Shown: positions 3,860 through 51,303 of the stretch, piece after piece
Layout of the letters: every line of letters begins with the position of its first letter
Position numbering within the stretch: position 1 is the stretch's first letter
NCBI GenBank assembly: GCA_035530515.1
Contig: DATKUO010000136.1
Span: forward strand, 5,758 to 69,757
Origin: Bacteroidales bacterium
Lineage (GTDB): Bacteria > Bacteroidota > Bacteroidia > Bacteroidales > VadinHA17
Direction: 5' to 3'
Length of the DNA stretch: 64,000 bases
Notes under the pieces: generated by a model
Databases searched by the model: none
What the model saw: only the letters and a program-made list of their open reading frames with translations
Told to the model about the DNA's origin: nothing
Program-made: the position numbers and the translations under genes

Positions 3860-6289
3860 TTACTCTTCCGTATAATACCCCTGCGTCTTATCTGAATAAC
3901 CATATCGGCCATAGTAACCCCTGTTGTAATAGTTGAGGCCATAGGAGTAACCATATCCCTGTGCATAACCATAGCGCATACCGTAACCGTAGTACCCGGT
4001 AAGACTTATGTCGTTTATTACAATGGCCATATTCTTAAGTTCGCCATGGTTGTTTAGCTGATCTATCAGTTCGAGTGTATTACGCGAGGAGTATCGCTGG
4101 CGTACTATAAACAGGTTAACGTCAACAAACCGGGCAAGTAAGAGAGCATCTGTAACTATAGCAACCGGAGGAGTATCAATAATTATATAATCATATTCTT
4201 TCTTAGCTCTTTCCATAAACTTTTTCATCAGTTCCGTCTCGATAAGTTCAGCAGGGTTTGGAGGTATGGGTCCGGATGGGGCGTAAAAAAGATTATCAAT
4301 CTGTGTTTTCTTAATTATCTCTTCATAATTACAGTTACCGCTGAGGTATGTGCTCATACCCGGACTATCGTCGAATTCAAAAACCCTGTTGATTCGTGGT
4401 TTCCTCAGGTCAAGCCCCACCAGAAGAACTCTTTTGCCAAGCATTGCTGTTATGGCTGCCAGGTTTACAGCAATAAATGTCTTACCCTCCATACTAATAG
4501 TTGATAAAACGGCGATAACCGATACTTCATTTTCCTTAACAAAATATTTTATCGCAGTCCGGACAGACCTGAACGACTCAGCAAGCGACGAACCGGGTTT
4601 TTCGACAACCAGTATCTCACTCTTCCCCTCTTTATGACTGATATATCCGATTACAGGAACTTTTGTCTTTCTCTCGATATCTTTTTTATCTATTACCTTA
4701 TCATTGAAAAAGTCAATCAGTGCAATTAATGCAGCAGGTAACATTAATCCCAGTATAAGGGCAATAATAATGTTATTCCTGGCTTTTGGTTTAATAAGTG
4801 CCGAACTGTAGAACGAAGCCGGGTCAATAATACGGTTGTCGGATACATTGGATGCCCTTGCAATACCCGATTCAGACCGTTTTTCGAGAAGATAGGTATA
4901 GACAGTATTGTTAAGATCGAAGACCCTCTGAATATTAATGAAATTCCTTTCCGTTGAAGGAAGTTTACTGATCTCAATCTCCACGCCGGATATTTTCCTG
5001 TCCGATTCAGCAATGATCTGCTTAAGTCCCGCGATCCCGTTTTTCACATTCTCCCTGAGAGCTTCTCTGGCCTCATCTGTTTGTTTATTGAGAAGAGCAT
5101 GAGCAGGCTGGTCACCACTTATGTTGAAACCGATCCTTTCCATCTCCTTCTGGTATGCAGAAAGCTCATTTACTAACCTTATGAGTACCGGGTCGGCTAT
5201 TCCCATTACCGAAGGGGAGAAAATCGCTCCTCCGGTATTCTTTATATTGAGATATTCAGACAGGTAGTTGTAGTACTGAAGCTGCAGATTAAATGAGGCT
5301 CTTTCATTCTCAAATTTCTCCAGCCTGTTCTGGATAAGCGAACCCTCCCTGCTTAGATCAACAAACCTGTTCTTCAATCTGAAACTTTCAAGTTTCTCTT
5401 CTGCTTTCGAGAGGGAGTCCGATATTATATTAAGCTGAGCATCAATAAATTTAATTGTGCTGTCGGCTGTCCGGTTTTTATTGTCGACACCATATCCTAT
5501 ATATTCTCTCATCAGTGTATTAAGATAATCGGCTTCCTGCCGGGGCACTGATCCTGAAACCGAAAGTGCAACGAGCGATGCATCCTTTTCGATAGGCGCC
5601 ACAGATAATTTGGCCCGGTATTCCGTAGCAAGAGCCCCGGGTTCTGTAAACCAGAAATAGTATCTGTTTGAGCCGTCTTCCAAACATACTGTGTCACCGG
5701 GAATCCTCTTTTCAATTGTGAAGTCAAAGCCAAATTCAGTAAAACGATCCCCAAAACTCATCTCGTCAACAAAATTCAGATCCCCATCGAGACTGATACG
5801 ATATTTTTCTTCAGACAGTATTTCTATATCGACCCTGAATCCTTTCGGCTCAACCTCAAGGGAATCATAAACCACCCTGAAGGGACATGTATTATACATC
5901 CTTGATTCAACTATCTTCCTTCTTCCGACACCCACATAAATCACATGAAAATCCTTCAGCTTTTCCATCACCGCATAATTGAGCCTGAATGATCTGAGGA
6001 TGCCCATCTCATTTATCAGGTTTTGTTGACTCTTGAAAATATCTCCTCCCGGCAGTATACTTGCAACATTACCGCTCATGTTGGCCATCTGATCATCTTT
6101 AATCAGCAGAGAAGATGATACAGTGTAGATCTTCTCTGAATACCTGTTTATCCCATAGGCCAGTGTCACAGCAATAAACAAGGTAATGGCAAACCAGTAC
6201 CAGTTGCTTATGAAAAGAGACAGATATCTCTTTATATCGATGTTTTCGTCTTCGGGGAAATTTGGTTGGGAGGGGTAGTTGGGGTCCAT
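3860..6289 (-). CDS. wzc: Polysaccharide co-polymerase / BY-kinase (Wzc/GumC-like tyrosine autokinase)
   Basis: 809 aa. It has an N-terminal Wzz-like domain with two TM segments and a long coiled coil. The C-terminal P-loop domain (SMEGKT, IIIDTPP) is followed by a Tyr-rich tail, GYYGYGMRYGYAQGYGYSYGLNYYNRGYYGRYGY. Confidence 0.85.
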   Translation of the reverse strand: MDPNYPSQPNFPEDENIDIKRYLSLFISNWYWFAITLFIAVTLAYGINRYSEKIYTVSSSLLIKDDQMANMSGNVASILPGGDIFKSQQNLINEMGILRSFRLNYAVMEKLKDFHVIYVGVGRRKIVESRMYNTCPFRVVYDSLEVEPKGFRVDIEILSEEKYRISLDGDLNFVDEMSFGDRFTEFGFDFTIEKRIPGDTVCLEDGSNRYYFWFTEPGALATEYRAKLSVAPIEKDASLVALSVSGSVPRQEADYLNTLMREYIGYGVDNKNRTADSTIKFIDAQLNIISDSLSKAEEKLESFRLKNRFVDLSREGSLIQNRLEKFENERASFNLQLQYYNYLSEYLNIKNTGGAIFSPSVMGIADPVLIRLVNELSAYQKEMERIGFNISGDQPAHALLNKQTDEAREALRENVKNGIAGLKQIIAESDRKISGVEIEISKLPSTERNFINIQRVFDLNNTVYTYLLEKRSESGIARASNVSDNRIIDPASFYSSALIKPKARNNIIIALILGLMLPAALIALIDFFNDKVIDKKDIERKTKVPVIGYISHKEGKSEILVVEKPGSSLAESFRSVRTAIKYFVKENEVSVIAVLSTISMEGKTFIAVNLAAITAMLGKRVLLVGLDLRKPRINRVFEFDDSPGMSTYLSGNCNYEEIIKKTQIDNLFYAPSGPIPPNPAELIETELMKKFMERAKKEYDYIIIDTPPVAIVTDALLLARFVDVNLFIVRQRYSSRNTLELIDQLNNHGELKNMAIVINDISLTGYYGYGMRYGYAQGYGYSYGLNYYNRGYYGRYGYSDKTQGYYTEE

Positions 6290-6296
6290 GGGGTAA

Positions 6297-6344
6297 GATG
6301 TTATGGCGTTATGATGTTATGGCGTTATGATGTTATGGCGTTTT
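6297..6344. repeat. 16-nt tandem repeat gatgttatggcgttat x3
   Basis: Copies at 6297-6312 and 6313-6328 are identical; the 6329-6344 copy differs at one position. The array lies between the wzc start and the four-helix-bundle stop, and the last copy overlaps the ORF end. Confidence 0.9.
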
Positions 6345-6713
6345 ATTGTTAGGCGGTATGGATTTGAAATATTTTGTGAGAGCGCTGAGTTTGTTGGAGA
6401 CTTTTTCAATTTGCTTTCGTATTTCAGTGTATTGATCTTCATTAATATATTTTAAGTCAAGGGATGCAATAGTTTGATTAAGTAATTCCATAAGACTTGA
6501 ATATGCTATTGTCATGAAATTTGATTTGTCTTTCCCTGTTGATCTATAGGAACCTTCGACAATGTTAGAAGAAACTGAAATTACTGACCTTCTCATCTGA
6601 TTAGTAATTCCAAATTTCTCGTCATCGGGAAATCCTTTGGTGATAGTATAAACCATTTTCGTTAATTCTCTGGAATCATTCCAAACCTCTAATTTTTCAA
6701 ACGAATATTTCAT
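6333..6713 (-). CDS. Four-helix-bundle protein (23S rRNA IVS protein family)
   Basis: 126 aa: MKYSFEKLEVWNDSRELTKMVYTITKGFPDDEKFGITNQMRRSVISVSSNIVEGS. Confidence 0.85.
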   Translation of the reverse strand: MKYSFEKLEVWNDSRELTKMVYTITKGFPDDEKFGITNQMRRSVISVSSNIVEGSYRSTGKDKSNFMTIAYSSLMELLNQTIASLDLKYINEDQYTEIRKQIEKVSNKLSALTKYFKSIPPNNKTP

Positions 6714-8291: not shown

Positions 8292-8330
8292 AAAGTTTTG
8301 GGCGTTGGGCGTTATATGCGACTGCGTCGT

Positions 8331-8463
8331 GTTATGGAGTTATGGGGTTGTTGCGTTATGGCGTTATGGCGTTGTGGTGTAAGAAATTGGAATTTCATTT
8401 ACTAAAATGTGTCATTCTCCCAACATTCCTTCATAACAATATAACGACACAACAACATAACAA
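8331..8463. repeat. ORF-less long hairpin built from gttatggc / gccataac words
   Basis: The left arm is gttatggagttatggggttgttgcgttatggcgttatggcgttgtggtg. The right arm is cataacaatataacgacacaacaacataacaa, which is about 75-80 % complementary. The loop is about 50 nt, in the wza-to-AlbA_2 spacer. Confidence 0.65.
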
Positions 8464-15833: not shown

Positions 15834-15965
15834 GGATTGCTTCGTCATCACGCCATGCGTGATTCCTCGCAATGACACTGCAAGTAATTTAGGTTTGTTT
15901 TGGGCCAAAACCGCATATAGTTAAGTTAAACCGGTCATTGCGAGGAGTGAAACGACGAAGCAACC
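15834..15965. repeat. Nested palindromic repeat, copy A (unit1 15834-15876, unit2 15934-15965)
   Basis: Unit1 is ggattgcttcgtc-ATCACGCcatGCGTGAT-tcctcgcaatgac. Unit2, gtcattgcgaggagtgaaacgacgaagcaacc, is its inverted partner. The spacer holds the palindrome gttttgggccaaaac. Confidence 0.85.
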
Positions 15966-16052
15966 TCATAAACCATCCACATCATTAACCAGATCACGCC
16001 ATTCAGGATTAATCACCCTGAACACCGGTCGCCTCAAGCCGCAAGCCTGCAA

Positions 16053-17307: not shown

Positions 17308-17404
17308 GTCATTGCAATGACCCTGCTCCCATATGATGTTTTATACAGTTTATGTACTATAGGATTGCTTCGTCATCACGCCATGCGTGATTCCTCGCAA
17401 TGAC
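17308..17404. repeat. Palindromic repeat units: mini-palindrome gtcattgcaatgac (17308-17321) and unit1 copy (17362-17404)
   Basis: 17362-17404 is identical over 43 nt to 15834-15876. A further 23 nt of left flank matches 15811-15833 with 4 mismatches. Confidence 0.9.
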
Positions 17405-17616
17405 GCTGCATGCAAGGGTATTCTGTTATGGGATTAAACAGAACATGATAAAGTCCGCCCCTTTTCTTCCCTGTGTCCAGCATCAAGTGTCCTTGTGTCT
17501 TGTTCCCTACACCCTGATCCCCCGCCATCAACATACCCCTATCGACACTCCGTCACTAACCACCCACCCCTTAATCAATATTTAACCAATTCCTCTAATA
17601 TTTTGTTTATAAGTTA

Positions 17617-21942: not shown

Positions 21943-22175
21943 TTCCGGGCAAAAACGTAAACTTAATAGAATCAGAGTCAGGGAGAGGGCTCTTTTTTTT
22001 TAAAAAATGGCGTCGGGCGTCAGGTATCGGGCATCTGGCACCATAAAAATAAATTCCTGACTCTTGAAACCAAGGGCATATATAATATAGTTCTTTCTGA
22101 TGCCTGATGCCTGATAGGCAAGGGCATGACCAGAAGACTGCACGACAGCATGACAGCGCGAAGTGCAAGACCCCA
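21943..22175 (+). repeat. R element copy 3 (long)
   Basis: A degraded peptide-3' remnant (ttccgggcaaaaacgtaaactt) comes first. Then follow the hairpin, T10/A6, and a word hairpin (22009-22042 against 22097-116). The tail is ggcaagggcatgacc...gcaagacc. Confidence 0.75.
21974..22001 (+). terminator. Hairpin plus T-run (R element core)
   Basis: The stem is AGAGTC/GGCTCT (one G-U), the loop is agggagag, and 10 T follow. Confidence 0.5.
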
Positions 22176-23599: not shown

Positions 23600-23942
23600 G
23601 AGCTATAATTTTAAACAATCCTATTACCTAATATTCCTGTAAAAATTGGACTTAGCCTAATCGATCGGAAGCCTATTGTTGCAATAGCAAAGATAAAATT
23701 TATTTTTAAATAAGATTTTTGGAGAATTTTCTAATACGTACCGTAAAATAGCCAATTTGCCTGATGGCGGATGCGAGCTTATCCAATAAATCGGGATTCG
23801 GTTGGCTACACCGAGTTCACTTCGTTCGGTTTTTGTGTTAAGACAAGAAAGTGACTGGGGTGCAGGGCAGCGCCTCTTCAAAACGCTATGAAGGGAGGCG
23901 GGCTGCGTGAGGCGTCAGGCGTGGGGCGTCACATGTCATTGA

Positions 23943-27846: not shown

Positions 27847-27977
27847 AAATAGAATCCGAGTCAGGGAGAGGGCTCTTTTTTGTTTAAAAAAAGGCGTCGG
27901 GCCACGGGCATCAGGCGTCAGGAACGGATAAGCAAGGGCATGACCGTATGACTGCATGACTGCATGACCGCAAGACC
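27847..27977 (+). repeat. R element copy 6
   Basis: aaatagaatccGAGTCagggagagGGCTCttttttgtttaaaaaaaggcgtcgggccacgggcatcaggcgtcagg is followed by the tail aagggcatgaccgtatgactgcatgactgcatgaccgcaagacc. Confidence 0.75.
27858..27885 (+). terminator. Hairpin plus T-run (R element core)
   Basis: The stem is GAGTC/GGCTC (one G-U), the loop is agggagag, and ttttttgttt follows. Confidence 0.45.
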
Positions 27978-29450: not shown

Positions 29451-29735
29451 AAAAGAACGTGCGACTGTACGGTGGTGCGGCAGCAACAAAGGAGCAGATG
29501 AGCCGTTTCAGGGTCCGTTTGGGGATGAGCCGTTCGGGTAAGAACGTGACTTAGCTAAATGGGAGTGCTGGAGGGCACTCTTTTTTGTTTAAAAAAAGGC
29601 GTCGGGCATCGGGCATCAGGCGTCAGGAACTGATAGGCAAGGGCACATATATAATATAGTTCTTCCTAAAGCCTGAAACCAGTCGCCTGTAGCCATTAAT
29701 AAATTTCCCTGAAACCTGTAGCCTGAAGCCTGAAT
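29451..29735 (+). repeat. R element copy 7 (long)
   Basis: It begins with a peptide-3' remnant translating ..GSNKGADEPFQGPFGDEPFG* (stop at 29539-41). Then come the hairpin, ttttttgtttaaaaaaaggcgtcgggcatcgggcatcaggcgtcagg, caagggcacatatataatatagttcttcc and gcctgaaRcc words. Confidence 0.75.
29563..29590 (+). terminator. Hairpin plus T-run (R element core, covarying stem)
   Basis: The stem is GAGTGC/GCACTC (6 bp, perfect) and the loop is tggagg. The stem sequence differs from other copies but pairing is kept. Confidence 0.5.
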
Positions 29736-29771: not shown

Positions 29772-29807
29772 GGGATTGCGAGCCCCGCCCCGCGGGACGA
29801 AGCAATC
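29772..29807. repeat. Single degenerate unit of the palindromic repeat family
   Basis: ggattgcgag-CCCCGCcccGCGGG-acgaagcaatc. Confidence 0.55.
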
Positions 29808-29999
29808 TCCTGATCCCATCCACAGTATCTTGTATTATTTAATGGAGCAGTGCTCCAAACCCCGGTTCAGTAAATTTTACCTTATTTATTTCTACGCTAA
29901 CTACGAGAAAACTCTGAGACTGTGAATTAACTCCTGCCTTTCACCCAGGCCTTATTTCACAGGGCGAGGTGCGTGGTATGCGGCGCATACCTCAAGCCG

Positions 30000-35126: not shown

Positions 35127-35142
35127 TTGGATTGGTAGCTAA

Positions 35143-35275
35143 GGATTGCTTCGTCCCGCTTTACGGGACTCGCAATGACGCTGCACATAATTAATTTCTG
35201 TTTTGTGAATGCACAGTACATTATTAAGTCCTGGGTCATTGCGAGGATCCGCCAACTGGCGGAGACGAAGCAATC
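35143..35275. repeat. Nested palindromic repeat, copy B (unit1 35143-35179, unit2 35235-35275)
   Basis: The units are ggattgcttcGTCCCGctttaCGGGACtcgcaatgac and gtcattgcgaggaTCCGCCaactGGCGGAgacgaagcaatc. The copy is preceded by ttggattggtagctaa, matching the last codons plus stop of the GIY-YIG gene at 40486-40500. Confidence 0.85.
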
Positions 35276-35373
35276 TGCTAGTACCATATCCGGATTATCT
35301 AATGATGATTTCCACATACCTCATGCCGCTTACCGCTTACCACTTTTATAAAATATCATAATGCAAATAGTCC

Positions 35374-37156: not shown

Positions 37157-38704
37157 ATGGAGAAAATTAAGTTCCGGGTTATTACACTTTTAGCTGATAT
37201 TGTAATTCTGACAATATCGTTTCTTGCTATGGTATGGACCAAACCGGCAAGCCTGAGGTTGTACCTGCCATCACATACTCCGTTTTTTCTGGCGCTGGCT
37301 TTAATGTGGATAATTGTTTCGCTGGCTAACGGGAAGATGCACCGTGGAAAGATTATCAACTTCACTACTCTCTTTACAAGGGTTCTGAGCAGTAATATTA
37401 TAGCTGTGGCAATTACAGCACTGGTAATGTATAGTATCAGGGACTATTTTTATTCCAGGACCATTGTCCTTGGGACTGCCCTGGTTGCAACTATGTTGGA
37501 GCTTCTTTTCGGATCAGTCTATATAGCTTATAAAAAGGCAGTTATACAGGATTATGAGGAGTACGAGAAGTATAAGAAATATAAAATACCCAGTGAATAT
37601 GATCTTGTAAAGGGGACTAACGGAAACGGAGTACATATTGCTGAGAAGGAGGATGTTAACCCCAGGATTATCAGTGCAATTGAAAAAGAGTGCGGAACAG
37701 AGATGACCCAGGCTATTTTAAAGATAGCCAGTAATAAGCTTACTGACTATACGGCTGTATTATCAACTACAACCATTTTTAATATCGATGGTCTTATTCA
37801 TGATAAATACGACTATATTATCAATCTTCACAAGATCAACGACATCAAAAAGCTCGATGAATTCCTGGATGCTGTTAACAACAAACTTGATCTGAAGAGT
37901 TATTTTTTCTGTTGTGTCGAGACAAAAGACCAAAGAAAAAAGAGGCTGTTAAAAAAGTATCCACCTGTTCTTAACTGGATCTACTATCTTCTTGATTTCA
38001 TAGTTAAACGGATCCTTCCTAAGCTTAAGATCACCAGGGGTTTATACATTTTTCTTACCCGTGGAAATAATGCTGTAATATCGCGGGCCGAGGCACTGGG
38101 CAGACTATCGAGGGCAGGATTCAGGATCAGACAAGAGTCATTTATCGGGAACCTGCTATGCATTGAAGCAGTAAAAAGCAGCAATCCAATTCAAAAAAAT
38201 GATAACATTTACGGTCCGTTGATTGCATTGCCAAGGATAGGAAAAGAGGGACAAGTAATAAAGGTATATAAGCTTCGCACAATGCACCCTTATTCTGAGT
38301 ATATACAAGATTATGTCTATAAGCTACATTATCTTCAGGATGGAGGTAAGTTCAAGCATGACTTCCGGATAACTTCCTGGGGAGCAGTATGTAGAAAAAT
38401 ATGGCTCGATGAACTCCCTATGCTTATCAATTTTTTTGAAGGAGACATGAAGCTTGTCGGAATCAGACCCCTCAGCAAACAATATTTTGAACTCTACAAA
38501 AAAGATGTTCAGGAGAGAAGAATAAAATATAAGCCCGGGCTGATTCCCCCCTTCTATGCTGATATGCCTGGCGATATTGAAGAGATACAGGCTTCCGAGT
38601 TGAAATATCTCGATTCGTTCGACAAACGTCCTTTTTTTACTGATTTTTGCTATTTCTGGAAATCGGGATGGAATATATTATTCAGGAAAGCAAGGAGTAA
38701 TTAA
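37157..38704 (+). CDS. Initiating sugar-phosphate transferase (Bac_transf / WbaP-like)
   Basis: 515 aa with N-terminal TM helices. The C-terminal domain reads PRIGKEGQVIKVYKLRTM...WLDELPMLINFFEGDMKLVGIRPL. Confidence 0.75.
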   Translation: MEKIKFRVITLLADIVILTISFLAMVWTKPASLRLYLPSHTPFFLALALMWIIVSLANGKMHRGKIINFTTLFTRVLSSNIIAVAITALVMYSIRDYFYSRTIVLGTALVATMLELLFGSVYIAYKKAVIQDYEEYEKYKKYKIPSEYDLVKGTNGNGVHIAEKEDVNPRIISAIEKECGTEMTQAILKIASNKLTDYTAVLSTTTIFNIDGLIHDKYDYIINLHKINDIKKLDEFLDAVNNKLDLKSYFFCCVETKDQRKKRLLKKYPPVLNWIYYLLDFIVKRILPKLKITRGLYIFLTRGNNAVISRAEALGRLSRAGFRIRQESFIGNLLCIEAVKSSNPIQKNDNIYGPLIALPRIGKEGQVIKVYKLRTMHPYSEYIQDYVYKLHYLQDGGKFKHDFRITSWGAVCRKIWLDELPMLINFFEGDMKLVGIRPLSKQYFELYKKDVQERRIKYKPGLIPPFYADMPGDIEEIQASELKYLDSFDKRPFFTDFCYFWKSGWNILFRKARSN

Positions 38705-38709
38705 ATAAA

Positions 38710-38745
38710 GGCGTCAGGCATCGGGCGTCGGGCATCAGGTGTCGG
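38710..38745. repeat. Left inverted-repeat arm of four-helix-bundle cassette 5 (ggcgtcRggcatc words)
   Basis: cgggcgtcgggcatcag resembles rc(39171-39195), which contains cgggcgtcaggcatcag, matching at 16 of 17 positions. Confidence 0.7.
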
Positions 38746-38850: not shown

Positions 38851-39204
38851 ATGGGAAACTTTAAAAAACTACATGTTTGGCAAAATGCCAAAGATCTTGC
38901 TGTTAATGTTTACAAATTAACAGATTCTGTATATTTTAATAAGGATTTTGGCCTAAAGGACCAGATTAGACGGTCATCAGTATCAATTTCATCAAATATT
39001 GCTGAGGGAGATAATCTGGATACAGATAAACAAAGCATAAAGCATTTCTATATCGCTCGTGGTTCAACAGCTGAACTGAGAACACAATTGATAATTTCTT
39101 TGGAAATCGGATATATCACTTTTGAACAATTTGAACGGTTAGAGCCAGAGTGTGATAAGATTTGTGCAATGCTGATGCCTGACGCCCGACGCCGCAAATT
39201 TTAA
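38851..39204 (+). CDS. Four-helix-bundle protein (23S rRNA IVS protein family)
   Basis: 117 aa: MGNFKKLHVWQNAKDLAVNVYKLT......DFGLKDQIRRSSVSISSNIAEG. Confidence 0.85.
   Translation: MGNFKKLHVWQNAKDLAVNVYKLTDSVYFNKDFGLKDQIRRSSVSISSNIAEGDNLDTDKQSIKHFYIARGSTAELRTQLIISLEIGYITFEQFERLEPECDKICAMLMPDARRRKF
39171..39195. repeat. Right inverted-repeat arm of cassette 5, inside the last codons of the ORF
   Basis: gctgatgcctgacgcccgacgccgc encodes ..MLMPDARRR. Confidence 0.7.
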
Positions 39205-40269: not shown

Positions 40270-40350
40270 AGGAGAGAAGGAATGCCGGTGGAGAAGAAGA
40301 GGGTCAGGAGAAAGAAGTAATGTATTATGTATTTTGGACAATGGATTGAA

Positions 40351-40485
40351 GGATTGCTTCGTCCCGCAATGCAGGACTCGCAATGACCGGGGGCTTAATA
40401 ATGAGTAGTGCAATCCCAAAATAGAAATAGATTATCTGCAGCGTCATTGCGAGAATCCCAATGAAATTGGGAGGCGAAGCAATCC
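40351..40485. repeat. Nested palindromic repeat, copy C (unit1 40351-40387, unit2 40443-40485), inverted relative to copies A/B/D
   Basis: The units are ggattgcttcGTCCCGCaatGCAGGACtcgcaatgac and gtcattgcgagaaTCCCAATgaaATTGGGAggcgaagcaatcc. It ends at the base before the GIY-YIG stop codon. Confidence 0.85.
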
Positions 40486-40779
40486 TTAGCTACCATCCAG
40501 AGTCGAACTTAGGTCAAGCCACACTGGGTTATTTTCGTTAATTAATTGCACTTTTTTCTTCCTGGGCCCGGATTTGATTTGTTTTTCTCTAATAATGGCT
40601 TCACCAATTGTTTCGAAACTCTCAAAATAGACCAGTTTGCTGATATTATATCTTGCAGAGAAACTTTCAGAGTGTTTTTTCCTTTTATGTTGTGATATGC
40701 GCTGCAATAAATCACTAGTCACACCTGTGTAAAGAACTGTATTATTCTTATTTGTCAAAATATATACAAATCCCCTCAT
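40486..40779 (-). CDS. GIY-YIG nuclease-domain protein (COG2827/UPF0213-like)
   Basis: 97 aa: GFVYILTNKNNTVLYTGVTSDLLQRISQHK...LVYFE.F....EAI.REKQIK. Confidence 0.8.
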   Translation of the reverse strand: MRGFVYILTNKNNTVLYTGVTSDLLQRISQHKRKKHSESFSARYNISKLVYFESFETIGEAIIREKQIKSGPRKKKVQLINENNPVWLDLSSTLDGS

Positions 40780-43379: not shown

Positions 43380-43482
43380 TTATTAATAGTATTGAAAACT
43401 AACGTAAAGATAATTAATTATAACCTCAGTCATTAATCCTGATCCATATCAACGGATTAGAATGTTCTCTGTTGGGATTAAG

Positions 43483-43617
43483 GGATTGTTTCGTCCCGCT
43501 GCACGGGACTCGCAATGACACTGCAAGTAATAAAGGTATGTCTTTGGATCATCAGAGAATTATGTAAGATCCAAAGTCATTGCGAGGATCCGCCAGCAGG
43601 CGGAGACAAAGCAATCC
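43483..43617. repeat. Nested palindromic repeat, copy D (unit1 43483-43519, unit2 43576-43617)
   Basis: The units are ggattgtttcGTCCCGctgcaCGGGACtcgcaatgac and gtcattgcgaggaTCCGCCagcaGGCGGAgacaaagcaatcc. The spacer has a 9-bp perfect inverted repeat, ctttggatc/gatccaaag. Confidence 0.85.
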
Positions 43618-47148: not shown

Positions 47149-47273
47149 CGGCACAACGTAATTTGGTTTTGCGAGCCCGACGAAGGAGGGCGTGGCAATC
47201 CCCAACTCCCATTAACCAATTAACCTATTTTACTTCCTGATTCCATTTCCACTTATTGCTAAAACAGTTTTAT

Positions 47274-50282: not shown

Positions 50283-51185
50283 ATGAGAATACTCATCTCC
50301 AATCTGATAATAATTTTATTATTAGTATCATTTTCCTGTAAGCCCGGACCTGTGGAGAAAGATACATTTAAGCCGGTATTTTCAACCTATAAATCAGATT
50401 CCACAGGAAAATTGATCCCGGAAGAAAAAAATGAGATCTTTTATGGCATCCTCACTCCTGTTGAGGTATGCGCAATTTTTAATAGACTTGGAGTTCCTTA
50501 CGATAATGCCATCCTAAACCCTATTTCAAGAAGAGATGAATACCTGAGCAGCTCAAAAGCCTCTATAAATACAGGGATCTATGGTGTTGACTTCGGATAT
50601 CTTAAAATATTCGGTATCGGTCAGGAGTTAATCGACTATATGGTGACAATTCGTGAAATGAGCAATAAACTGGGTATCCCCGATCGCTTCCTTACTGAAC
50701 CAATCAGACAGATACAGGGAGATATGGCTGATCCTGATACAATTGCGATCATCATGAATACGGCTTTCTATAGTATGGAGAACCATCTTCGTACCGAAGG
50801 TAAGGAGAGTACTGCCGGACTAATGATAATGGGAGGATGGGTTGAAGCGCTCTTCATCGCTACCCAGCTTCTTTATGATCCTGATAATCCGGATCCGGAA
50901 GTAGTACAAAAGATTGCCGAACAAAAATATACCCTCACCTCTCTTTTCAGCTTCCTGAAAAATTATTACGACGACCCGGTTGTTGTCTATTATACTAAAA
51001 AACTTAAATTTCTTCAAAGCTATTTCGACACCTTCGATATCTATTTTAAAAAAGGTGATCTTGAAATTGACACAACAAAGCAGGTTTTACTTTCATCAGG
51101 CAGCGAGATGACAGTAACTGTCGAAACCCTTAATAATATCCGCGACTACGTCTTGAAACTCAGGACTGAGATGGTAACTCCATAA
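50283..51185 (+). CDS. Hypothetical lipoprotein
   Basis: 300 aa with a signal peptide and Cys (LLLVSFSC). No family was recognised. Confidence 0.5.
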   Translation: MRILISNLIIILLLVSFSCKPGPVEKDTFKPVFSTYKSDSTGKLIPEEKNEIFYGILTPVEVCAIFNRLGVPYDNAILNPISRRDEYLSSSKASINTGIYGVDFGYLKIFGIGQELIDYMVTIREMSNKLGIPDRFLTEPIRQIQGDMADPDTIAIIMNTAFYSMENHLRTEGKESTAGLMIMGGWVEALFIATQLLYDPDNPDPEVVQKIAEQKYTLTSLFSFLKNYYDDPVVVYYTKKLKFLQSYFDTFDIYFKKGDLEIDTTKQVLLSSGSEMTVTVETLNNIRDYVLKLRTEMVTP

Positions 51186-51209
51186 AGGCATCAGGCATCA
51201 GGCATCAGG
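51186..51209. repeat. 7-nt tandem aggcatc x3
   Basis: It lies directly after the 50283-51185 stop codon and uses the same word family as the R elements and cassette 5 arms. Confidence 0.85.
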
Positions 51210-51303
51210 GAAGGGGTGAGTTCGTGGGAGAATAATAGATTTATTAAGGGGATAAACGCAATCCATTGACCACAGAATTAAAATAATTTCAAATCCCCCG
51301 ACT

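Follow-up and report, generated by a model that had tools for sequence, protein, structure and literature searches.

A Bacteroidales locus with an Ssn-family GIY-YIG nuclease gene beside bipartite hairpin repeats

The Ssn system described by Chenal et al. (2025, Nat Commun 16:2388; PMC11893778) consists of a tiny GIY-YIG nuclease and of hairpin repeats that are found genome-wide. The present work concerns a gene for such a nuclease, which we call ssn, and the palindromic repeats around it in a stretch of 64,000 nt (the window, by which we mean this whole stretch) from a metagenome-assembled genome (MAG) of the Bacteroidales. In Neisseria meningitidis the nuclease is SsnA (NMV_0044), a bare GIY-YIG protein of 94 aa that belongs to the Conserved Domain Database family cd10448, and the repeat is NTS (CGTCATTCCCGCGMAVGCGGGAATCYRG), which has the form C-GTC-ATTCCCGCG...CGCGGGAAT-C-Y-R-G (PMC11893778). 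SsnA binds the NTS hairpin solely as single-stranded DNA (ssDNA) and on one strand, cleaves a few nt upstream of it, does not cleave double-stranded DNA (dsDNA), and does not interact with RNA. The GTC ahead of the palindrome is needed for cleavage, no base matters more for binding than the C past the palindrome, extensions at the loop position are tolerated without loss of cleavage, and the mutants Y6A, Y17A, and E64A abolish cleavage (PMC11893778). It was also shown that SsnA reduces transformation by NTS-bearing DNA, that the homologues of N. elongata, of N. wadsworthii, and of Wolbachia bind and cut their own flanking repeats, and that the gene is present in 81% of the genomes with more than 200 motifs; the authors themselves likened the arrangement NTS-ssnA-NTS to IS200/IS605 and to repetitive extragenic palindromic (REP) elements with their RAYT transposases (PMC11893778). 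Bacteroidota are not mentioned in the main text of that paper.

The association of gene and repeat is thus already published, and the locus described here is a Bacteroidales example of the Ssn system. The kind of system has been described before and this locus leaves the overall picture unchanged. What may be new beyond the Ssn paper is a bipartite repeat that is missed by the paper's pattern for Ssn motifs (SRM), the turnover of one genomic site, gene remnants beside paired repeats, and copies without the gene in phage contigs. A literature search on GIY-YIG under REP, RAYT, MITE (miniature inverted-repeat transposable element), COG2827, or YhbQ yielded nothing relevant, and a 2006 paper on GIY-YIG phylogenomics makes no mention of a repeat association.

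The ssn gene and its repeats in the window

The gene lies at 40486..40779 on the minus strand and codes for a bare, single-domain GIY-YIG protein of 97 aa; proteins of the Ssn (SsnA-like) family have about 94 aa and at most 150 aa. It matches the Pfam family GIY-YIG PF01541 over residues 3-74 with an E value of 2.5e-16 and has no second domain. When tblastn was run against PLSDB, a single place in the N. gonorrhoeae chromosome was found (51% identity, 93% coverage, E 3e-19), where the open reading frame (ORF) is 94 aa long, equal to the published length of SsnA, and where at least 16 copies of NTS lie in the surrounding 3.3 kb, one of them 5 nt past the stop codon. This NTS-flanked N. gonorrhoeae orthologue was used as the comparison sequence, standing in for N. 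meningitidis SsnA, and pairwise BLASTP with it gave 51% identity over 90 aa with an E value of 3e-29, inside the limits of E < 1e-10 and at least 75% coverage taken for the family. The source of this locus (L285) is a pair of PLSDB records, NZ_CP119140.1 and NZ_CP119142.1, which are two 2.17-Mb N. gonorrhoeae chromosomes filed as plasmids. Y6, Y17, and E65 of the window protein correspond in the alignment to Neisseria Y6, Y17, and E64 and are invariant among 18 homologues. Two units of the repeat described below lie within 135 nt of the stop codon, where flanking SRMs were looked for within 500 bp, and eight more are found elsewhere in the window. The identity of gene and repeat as Ssn and SRM is well supported, and it is very probable that the 97-aa gene codes for an Ssn-family nuclease whose cognate SRMs are these repeats.

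Two other assignments do not fit. The protein lacks the marks of a GIY-YIG homing endonuclease, since it scores 21.8 bits with TIGR01453, the NCBIfam model of group I intron endonucleases, against a cut-off of 56 and lacks a second domain, and the locus is not a member of the REP/RAYT class because the associated protein is GIY-YIG only and not an HUH/Y1 (IS200-like) transposase. The PADLOC and NCBIfam profiles gave only weak sub-threshold matches. The initial annotation of this DNA had proposed that the GIY-YIG protein may recognise or spread the hairpins, by analogy with REP and RAYT. The recognition is made likely by the biochemistry of the homologues (PMC11893778), the window protein being 51% identical, and the analogy is one that the authors of the Ssn paper drew as well.

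The repeat family noticed in that annotation is real. The core motif GGATTGCTTCGTC, allowing at most 2 mismatches, has 10 matches in the window against 1.05 expected, a number reached in none of 100 dinucleotide shuffles of the window, and there are four inverted doublets of about 135 bp besides single units. Complete units were located by a two-part scan of the window, which bore out the coordinates already annotated with small shifts of the ends (29775-29808, for instance, instead of 29772-29807). The doublet next to the ssn gene, doublet C, occupies 40351..40485 and is made of two inverted units flanking a spacer. The unit at 40443..40485 (plus strand) adjoins the ssn stop codon, which begins at the very next base just as had been annotated; it reads GTCATTGCGAG-AATCCCAATGAAATTGGGAGG-CGAAGCAATCC on the plus strand and forms a nested hairpin of -7.3 kcal/mol. 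The second SRM unit, at 40351..40387, has its GTC strand on the minus strand and folds with -8.0 kcal/mol. The spacer between them (40388..40442) is asymmetric and is kept among the doublets, as seen when they are aligned as inverted pairs. Doublet A (15834..15966) has units at 15834-15876 (GTC strand minus) and 15934-15966 (GTC strand plus), doublet B (35143..35276) at 35143-35179 (minus) and 35235-35276 (plus), and doublet D (43483..43617) at 43483-43519 (minus) and 43576-43617 (plus). All four align over their full length once doublet C is inverted, including the asymmetric spacer of about 55 nt, which reads CTGCAAGTAAT...GTTTTGGGATTG...ATAAAGT, and copies on two other Bacteroidales metagenome contigs align with them too. 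Because the copies align over the whole length, spacer included, the doublet is a composite repeat family of about 135 bp.

The remaining units are incomplete in one way or another. A shortened doublet at 17362..17455 (minus strand) consists of a left unit (17362-17404) and the spacer, is 78% identical to doublet A, and has lost the right unit. The single unit at 29775..29808 (plus strand), ATTGCGAG-CCCCGCCCCGCGGG-ACGAAGCAATC, is a hybrid without GTC in which both ends resemble the outer (GCAATC) ends, and it looks as if a doublet had collapsed through recombination between its two GCAAT arms. The unit at 47168..47202 (plus strand) is degenerate, being of the GATTGCCACGCCCTCCTTCGTCGGGCTCGCAA subtype with a decayed foot on the GTC side.

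When folded as ssDNA, 8 of the 10 units share one nested structure, in which a 5-bp foot (ATTGC/GCAAT) is separated by an internal loop from an upper hairpin; the latter has 5-7 bp and a loop of 3-5 nt, and its sequence varies from copy to copy. The right unit of doublet A (15934-15966) has a foot mismatch and no upper hairpin, a small correction to the mini-hairpins that had been annotated inside the units. Fold z-scores of individual units are modest (-1.4 to -3.4). A search of Rfam gave no match at the gathering threshold in the window and none up to an E value of 10 for 40300-40540.

The consensus of 673 units is R-GATTGC...GCAATGAC-R, or Y-GTC-ATTGC...GCAAT-C-Y on the opposite strand. On sequence grounds the frame Y-GTC...C-Y corresponds to the critical positions of NTS. 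The foot occurs in compensatory variants (ATCGC/GCGAT, ATTAC/GTAAT, ACTGC/GCAGT, ATTCC/GGAAT, and others) and its pairing is therefore supported. The conserved part of the repeat is only the foot with its flanking bases, while the upper hairpins are of several interchangeable palindromic types, and such free exchange fits the tolerance of NTS for extensions at the loop position (PMC11893778). Other, simple hairpins set in a GTC...C frame, GTCATGCTGAATTTAATTCAGCATC, the NTS-like GTCATTCCGGCCTTGAGCCGGAATC, and GTCATCCTGAATTTATTTCAGGATC, flank the ssn homologues of loci L042, L071, and L074, and these differences suggest many specificity classes.

Coupling of gene and repeat across genomes

Eighty loci with a homologue of the gene were taken from species genomes of Bacteroidota, Chlorobiota, Ignavibacteria, Patescibacteria, Spirochaetota, Deferribacterales, Desulfobacterota, and Gammaproteobacteria, and 78 of them were used for counts of density and distance. 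In most of the loci GATTGCTTCG...CTCGCAATGAC or its complement stands directly past the stop codon and ahead of the start codon. Units numbered 6.5/kb over the 100 nt upstream of the gene and 10.8/kb over the 50 nt downstream, as against 0.02-0.06/kb beyond 2 kb, so that on either side of the gene the nearest 100 nt are enriched in units more than 100-fold, and this in at least six phyla. The homologue loci hold 323 units and the corresponding shuffled sequence holds 1. A unit is present within 500 nt in 86% of the loci and on both sides in 60%; in the published Ssn set motifs lie near 71% of the homologue genes and on both sides of 42% (PMC11893778). The flanking units are variously oriented with respect to the gene, with 20, 11, 9, and 9 loci in the four classes. 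A reciprocal set of 80 loci (386 kb) was found in a metagenome collection by way of the neighbouring ribE protein and was thus selected for neither feature. For all 14 ssn genes in this set the distance from the stop codon to a unit is at most 72 nt, and for nine of them at most 4 nt, and 14 of the 38 clusters of units are within 300 nt of an ssn gene or a fragment of it, where about 1 was estimated by chance. The neighbourhood of repeat and gene, which the initial annotation had suggested should be counted genome-wide, is far above chance in both sets, and these counts show that the physical coupling of the two is general.

In this Bacteroidales lineage the unit usually adjoins the stop codon or supplies the last codons and the stop. 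Homologues are often 109 aa long (P0003, P0005, P0007, and others), the ORF reading through into the repeat, and their tails, for example LRLPRPPSSGSQ with the stop that follows, are a translated unit GGATCGCTTCGGCTCCC...TCGCAATGA in which the stop is the TGA inside CGCAATGAC. Where databases list such tails, these are encoded by the repeat and do not belong to the enzyme fold. The centre of this Ssn clade lies in Bacteroidota, and the bipartite repeat is found almost unchanged as far as Patescibacteria, Spirochaetota, Deferribacterota, Gammaproteobacteria, and phages. In a Prolixibacteraceae MAG (L048, 7544-12199) several full and partial ssn genes stand in tandem with a period of about 790-930 nt and lack a canonical unit in their vicinity.

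The units stand mostly between genes, directly past stop codons, which is where ordinary intrinsic terminators or mRNA-stabilising stem-loops would be expected, and if they were such structures their adjacency to ssn would be incidental. We consider this highly improbable. There is no T-run in the units, the same flanking motifs of 10-11 nt are kept across at least six phyla, the enrichment around one gene family exceeds 100-fold, and SsnA does not interact with RNA (PMC11893778). Nor do units in co-directional contexts have an orientation bias, with 53 sense and 51 antisense in phages and 57 and 67 in genomes, in a test that is weak in that crude ORF calling put many units inside ORFs.

Apart from genomes with the gene, 120 phage-like contigs (L085-L204, IMG/VR) were collected by the pattern of the repeat, and several of them are confirmed as phage-like by portal proteins and a DNA ligase. 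Examples are L099 (3339-12744), L191, and L087, and in some contigs all units point the same way (in L099 eight on one strand). No other protein family recurs next to the repeats in the phage contigs. That the repeat is common in phage contigs lacking the gene bears on the question whether Ssn acts on foreign DNA.

Several points weigh against the identification of this gene and repeat as Ssn and SRM. The ssn gene was found in just 1 of the 120 phage-like contigs and there it is frameshifted; the repeat can therefore persist without a nearby gene and repeats outnumber genes. In the window the units are on the 3' side only of the ssn gene and none is 5' of it. The biochemistry of the window protein and its repeat variant is presumed from that of the characterised homologues. 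The degenerate pattern published for SRM, HGTCWYN(0-2)YYVSBRHN(0-5)WNVSBRGN(0-2)RNCYNB, has 0 matches in the window and matches within 500 nt at only 1 of the 78 homologue loci. Since the pattern misses it, the window repeat is not an SRM as operationally defined in the paper. That pattern is a search tool derived from 29 genomes and not a definition of the family, and because it misses a whole class of repeats the published counts of repeat-less Ssn genes are probably too high. The counts of mismatches in the stems indicate no clear folding strand, since in the foot G-T/T-G outnumber A-C/C-A by 30 to 8, mostly through one inherited variant at the outermost pair, and in the upper stems G-T number 10 and A-C 15. 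The GTC strand is predicted to be the more stable one in 251 of 278 units, which is no independent evidence because it is largely due to the shared conserved part. Lastly, the initial annotation had proposed to look for co-variation of repeat variants with nuclease paralogues. Foot variant and protein clade did not co-vary significantly, the difference in identity of 0.011 being reached by 101 of 2000 permutations in a sample confounded by taxonomy.

Gain and loss at the ribE-rhodanese site

In loci related to that of the window the interval from the ribE stop codon to the rhodanese stop codon is polymorphic. It is empty, with 56-87 nt and no unit, in L210, L218, L223, L225, L231, and L263; it holds a doublet without the gene in L207, L214, L216, and L219; it holds the gene with one or more units in the window, L217, L226, and L255; and in L261 (2049-2125) it holds an N-terminal ssn stump of 25 codons. 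Since one orthologous site occurs in several states, namely, empty, with a doublet, with gene and doublet, and with a stump, the gene and the doublet must both come and go. The stump of L261 is cut at AAGCAATC, which mimics the end of a unit; the break is exactly at GTAACAAGCAATC, where the sequence coding for GVTSN mimics the repeat end CGAAGCAATC, and this suggests a deletion between gene and repeat through the shared 8-mer.

Remnants of the gene are found beside other doublets of the window. The clearest, at 15966..16016 on the minus strand, adjoins the right unit of doublet A and consists of the last 16 codons and the stop (VINPEWRDLVNDVDGL); it fits the C-terminus of the family and was matched by all 18 query proteins in tblastn (E 0.002). 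Ahead of doublet D there is a possible decayed C-terminal remnant at 43432..43482 on the plus strand, which begins SVINPD and has a weak tblastn match (E 0.005). Ahead of doublet B, at 35127..35142 on the plus strand, 16 nt match the last ssn codons and the stop (ttggattggtagctaa against ctggatggtagctaa). This last match had been annotated before, either as the footprint of a second nuclease gene or as a sign that the end of the gene is part of the repeat. It is present, and the former explanation is supported by the clearer remnants at 15966-16016 and 43432-43482. The latter was rejected as a general explanation because conservation upstream of GATTGC in the 673 units is confined to positions -1 (R) and -2 (G).

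The gain and loss at one site and the remnants fit two explanations. The first is that Ssn acts as RAYT transposases do and copies the 135-bp doublets to new sites, the repeats being dependent, non-autonomous elements. The doublets are indeed a multi-copy composite family that keeps its asymmetric spacer in the window as in other genomes, six loci have an empty ribE-rhodanese site and four have a doublet there without the gene, the ssn gene lies within clusters of repeats as RAYT genes do, and the same hypothesis was raised by the authors of the Ssn paper (PMC11893778). Of the features of a MITE, inverted terminal units are present at the doublets, but no target-site duplication was found at the four doublets of the window, where the similarity of the flanks continues as inverted and not as direct similarity, and clean insertion boundaries could not be found at the ribE-rhodanese site by comparison with empty sites, the intergenic sequence being too diverged. 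Moreover, GIY-YIG enzymes are, to our knowledge, hydrolytic throughout the superfamily and have no known strand transfer or covalent intermediate. The sole demonstrated function of the system is the restriction of ssDNA during transformation (PMC11893778). We regard spreading of the doublets by Ssn as possible but doubtful.

The second explanation is that ssn is itself a selfish gene of the homing type, which cuts and is copied beside clusters of SRMs that serve as landing pads, and then decays. Several results agree with it: the right flank of the doublet is common to the window, where the gene is present, and the orthologous site of L207, where it is absent; the ssn proteins at the ribE-rhodanese site are 63-74% identical to that of the window while the neighbouring ribE proteins are 86-91% identical; the remnants and the L261 stump look like decayed copies; extra copies of the gene exist, among them the tandem array of L048; and in most Bacteroidales copies the stop codon is 0-4 nt from a unit. 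Against these stand the lack of a DNA-binding domain of the kind that GIY-YIG homing endonucleases have, the variable orientation of the flanking units, and the presence of one conserved locus across Chryseobacterium species, which suggests vertical descent there. Classical homing, furthermore, needs a double-strand break whereas the characterised homologues leave dsDNA uncut (PMC11893778). Homing of the gene is in our judgement unlikely. Neither classical transposition nor classical homing is what one would expect of a bare hydrolytic domain that leaves duplex DNA uncut.

If the window protein acts like its characterised homologues, it would bind the hairpin only in ssDNA and only on the strand GTCATTGC...GCAATC, and would cut this GTC strand a few nt 5' of GTC. 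With cuts 5' of GTC, both predicted cuts of a 135-bp doublet would fall in the spacer and on opposite strands. The recognition module would be the 5-bp foot with its flanking bases, and the upper hairpin would be a freely exchangeable structural insert. The likely effect in the cell would be cleavage of motif-bearing ssDNA, for instance DNA taken in through transformation or conjugation, or intermediates of replication and repair. Clusters of repeats may in this way become hot spots of rearrangement, which would explain why doublets and genes have been gained and lost at one site. A bolder proposal sees gene and repeat as an actively mobile unit, in which the cuts made by Ssn at ssDNA hairpins would spread the doublets and would also cause the gene itself to be gained and lost. 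This we put forward only tentatively and think it rather improbable; were it true, the ribE-rhodanese site would have captured a mechanism of mobility built on a bare hydrolytic GIY-YIG domain. Irrespective of mobility, a repeat with a conserved 5-bp foot and flanks and an exchanged upper hairpin would be a natural specificity class, and a natural counterpart of the published experiment with loop extensions, and the enzyme and its site are a candidate new pair for ssDNA tools.

The window has other repeats and one further gene of note. Runs of GGCGTCGGGCATCGGGCATCAGGCGTCAGG-like heptamers or octamers directly past a terminator-like GAGGGCTCTTTTTT make up a second repeat family, unrelated to the first, at 22000-22038, 23888-23926, 27884-27922, 29589-29627, 38701-38739, and 51178-51216. 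Similar short tandem runs (GACGCACGACGCACG, GTGAGGAGTGAGG) follow ribE in L225, L234, L209, and L263. At 6267-6368 and 8322-8399, about 2 kb from each other, there are two arrays of tandem repeats of 8 nt (TGTTATGG/CGTTATGA). At 38851-39204, 1.3 kb from the ssn gene, there is a gene for a 117-aa member of the 23S rRNA intervening-sequence protein family (PF05635), whose genes are small and often multi-copy in Bacteroidota.

Comparison with known systems

The nearest solved structures are those of the UPF0213 proteins BH0048 (PDB 1ZG2) and EF2693 (PDB 1YWL), which are likewise bare GIY-YIG domains of about 100 aa but are distant relatives (profile E values of 4e-6 and 7e-3), and we know of no repeat association for them. 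With the GIY-YIG homing endonucleases I-TevI and the Seg proteins the window protein shares the catalytic fold, and the presence/absence polymorphism and the decayed copies resemble a homing cycle; those enzymes, however, have separate DNA-binding domains and cut dsDNA, whereas the window protein is a bare domain. TnpA of IS200/IS605 recognises ssDNA hairpins and cleaves a short distance from the foot of the hairpin, as is described for Ssn, but it has the HUH fold, performs covalent strand transfer, and acts on defined left and right ends around its gene.

Among repeats, the Neisseria intergenic mosaic elements are composite intergenic elements with inverted dRS3 repeats around RS units. Like the 135-bp doublets, they have two inverted hairpin repeats, the dRS3 ends, that bracket a spacer of 50-150 bp, while their sequences appear to differ from those of the doublets. 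REP elements and bacterial interspersed mosaic elements with RAYT are also dispersed short palindromic units, often in inverted pairs (REPIN-like), that flank the gene of a hairpin-recognising enzyme. A gene flanked by dispersed inverted palindromic units is what the window has as well, and this supports the statement that the locus works like REP/RAYT and not that it belongs there, since Ssn is a GIY-YIG hydrolase and not an HUH/Y1 transposase and its tag is GTC where that of REP is GTAG.

The closest system is Ssn/NTS. In each the protein is one GIY-YIG domain of about 95 aa, and the two are 51% identical and agree in the catalytic residues and their positions; in both, hairpin repeats cluster around the gene, the repeat has YGTC as its 5' border and CY as its 3' border, and genes are far fewer than repeats. 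They differ in that NTS has one stem of 8-9 bp, ATTCCCGCG, whereas in the window repeat the 5-bp foot ATTGC/GCAAT is joined through an internal loop to an upper hairpin that varies, and this repeat falls outside the published SRM pattern, and in that the host of the window locus is a Bacteroidales MAG, in whose lineage the unit usually stands at the stop codon of the gene.

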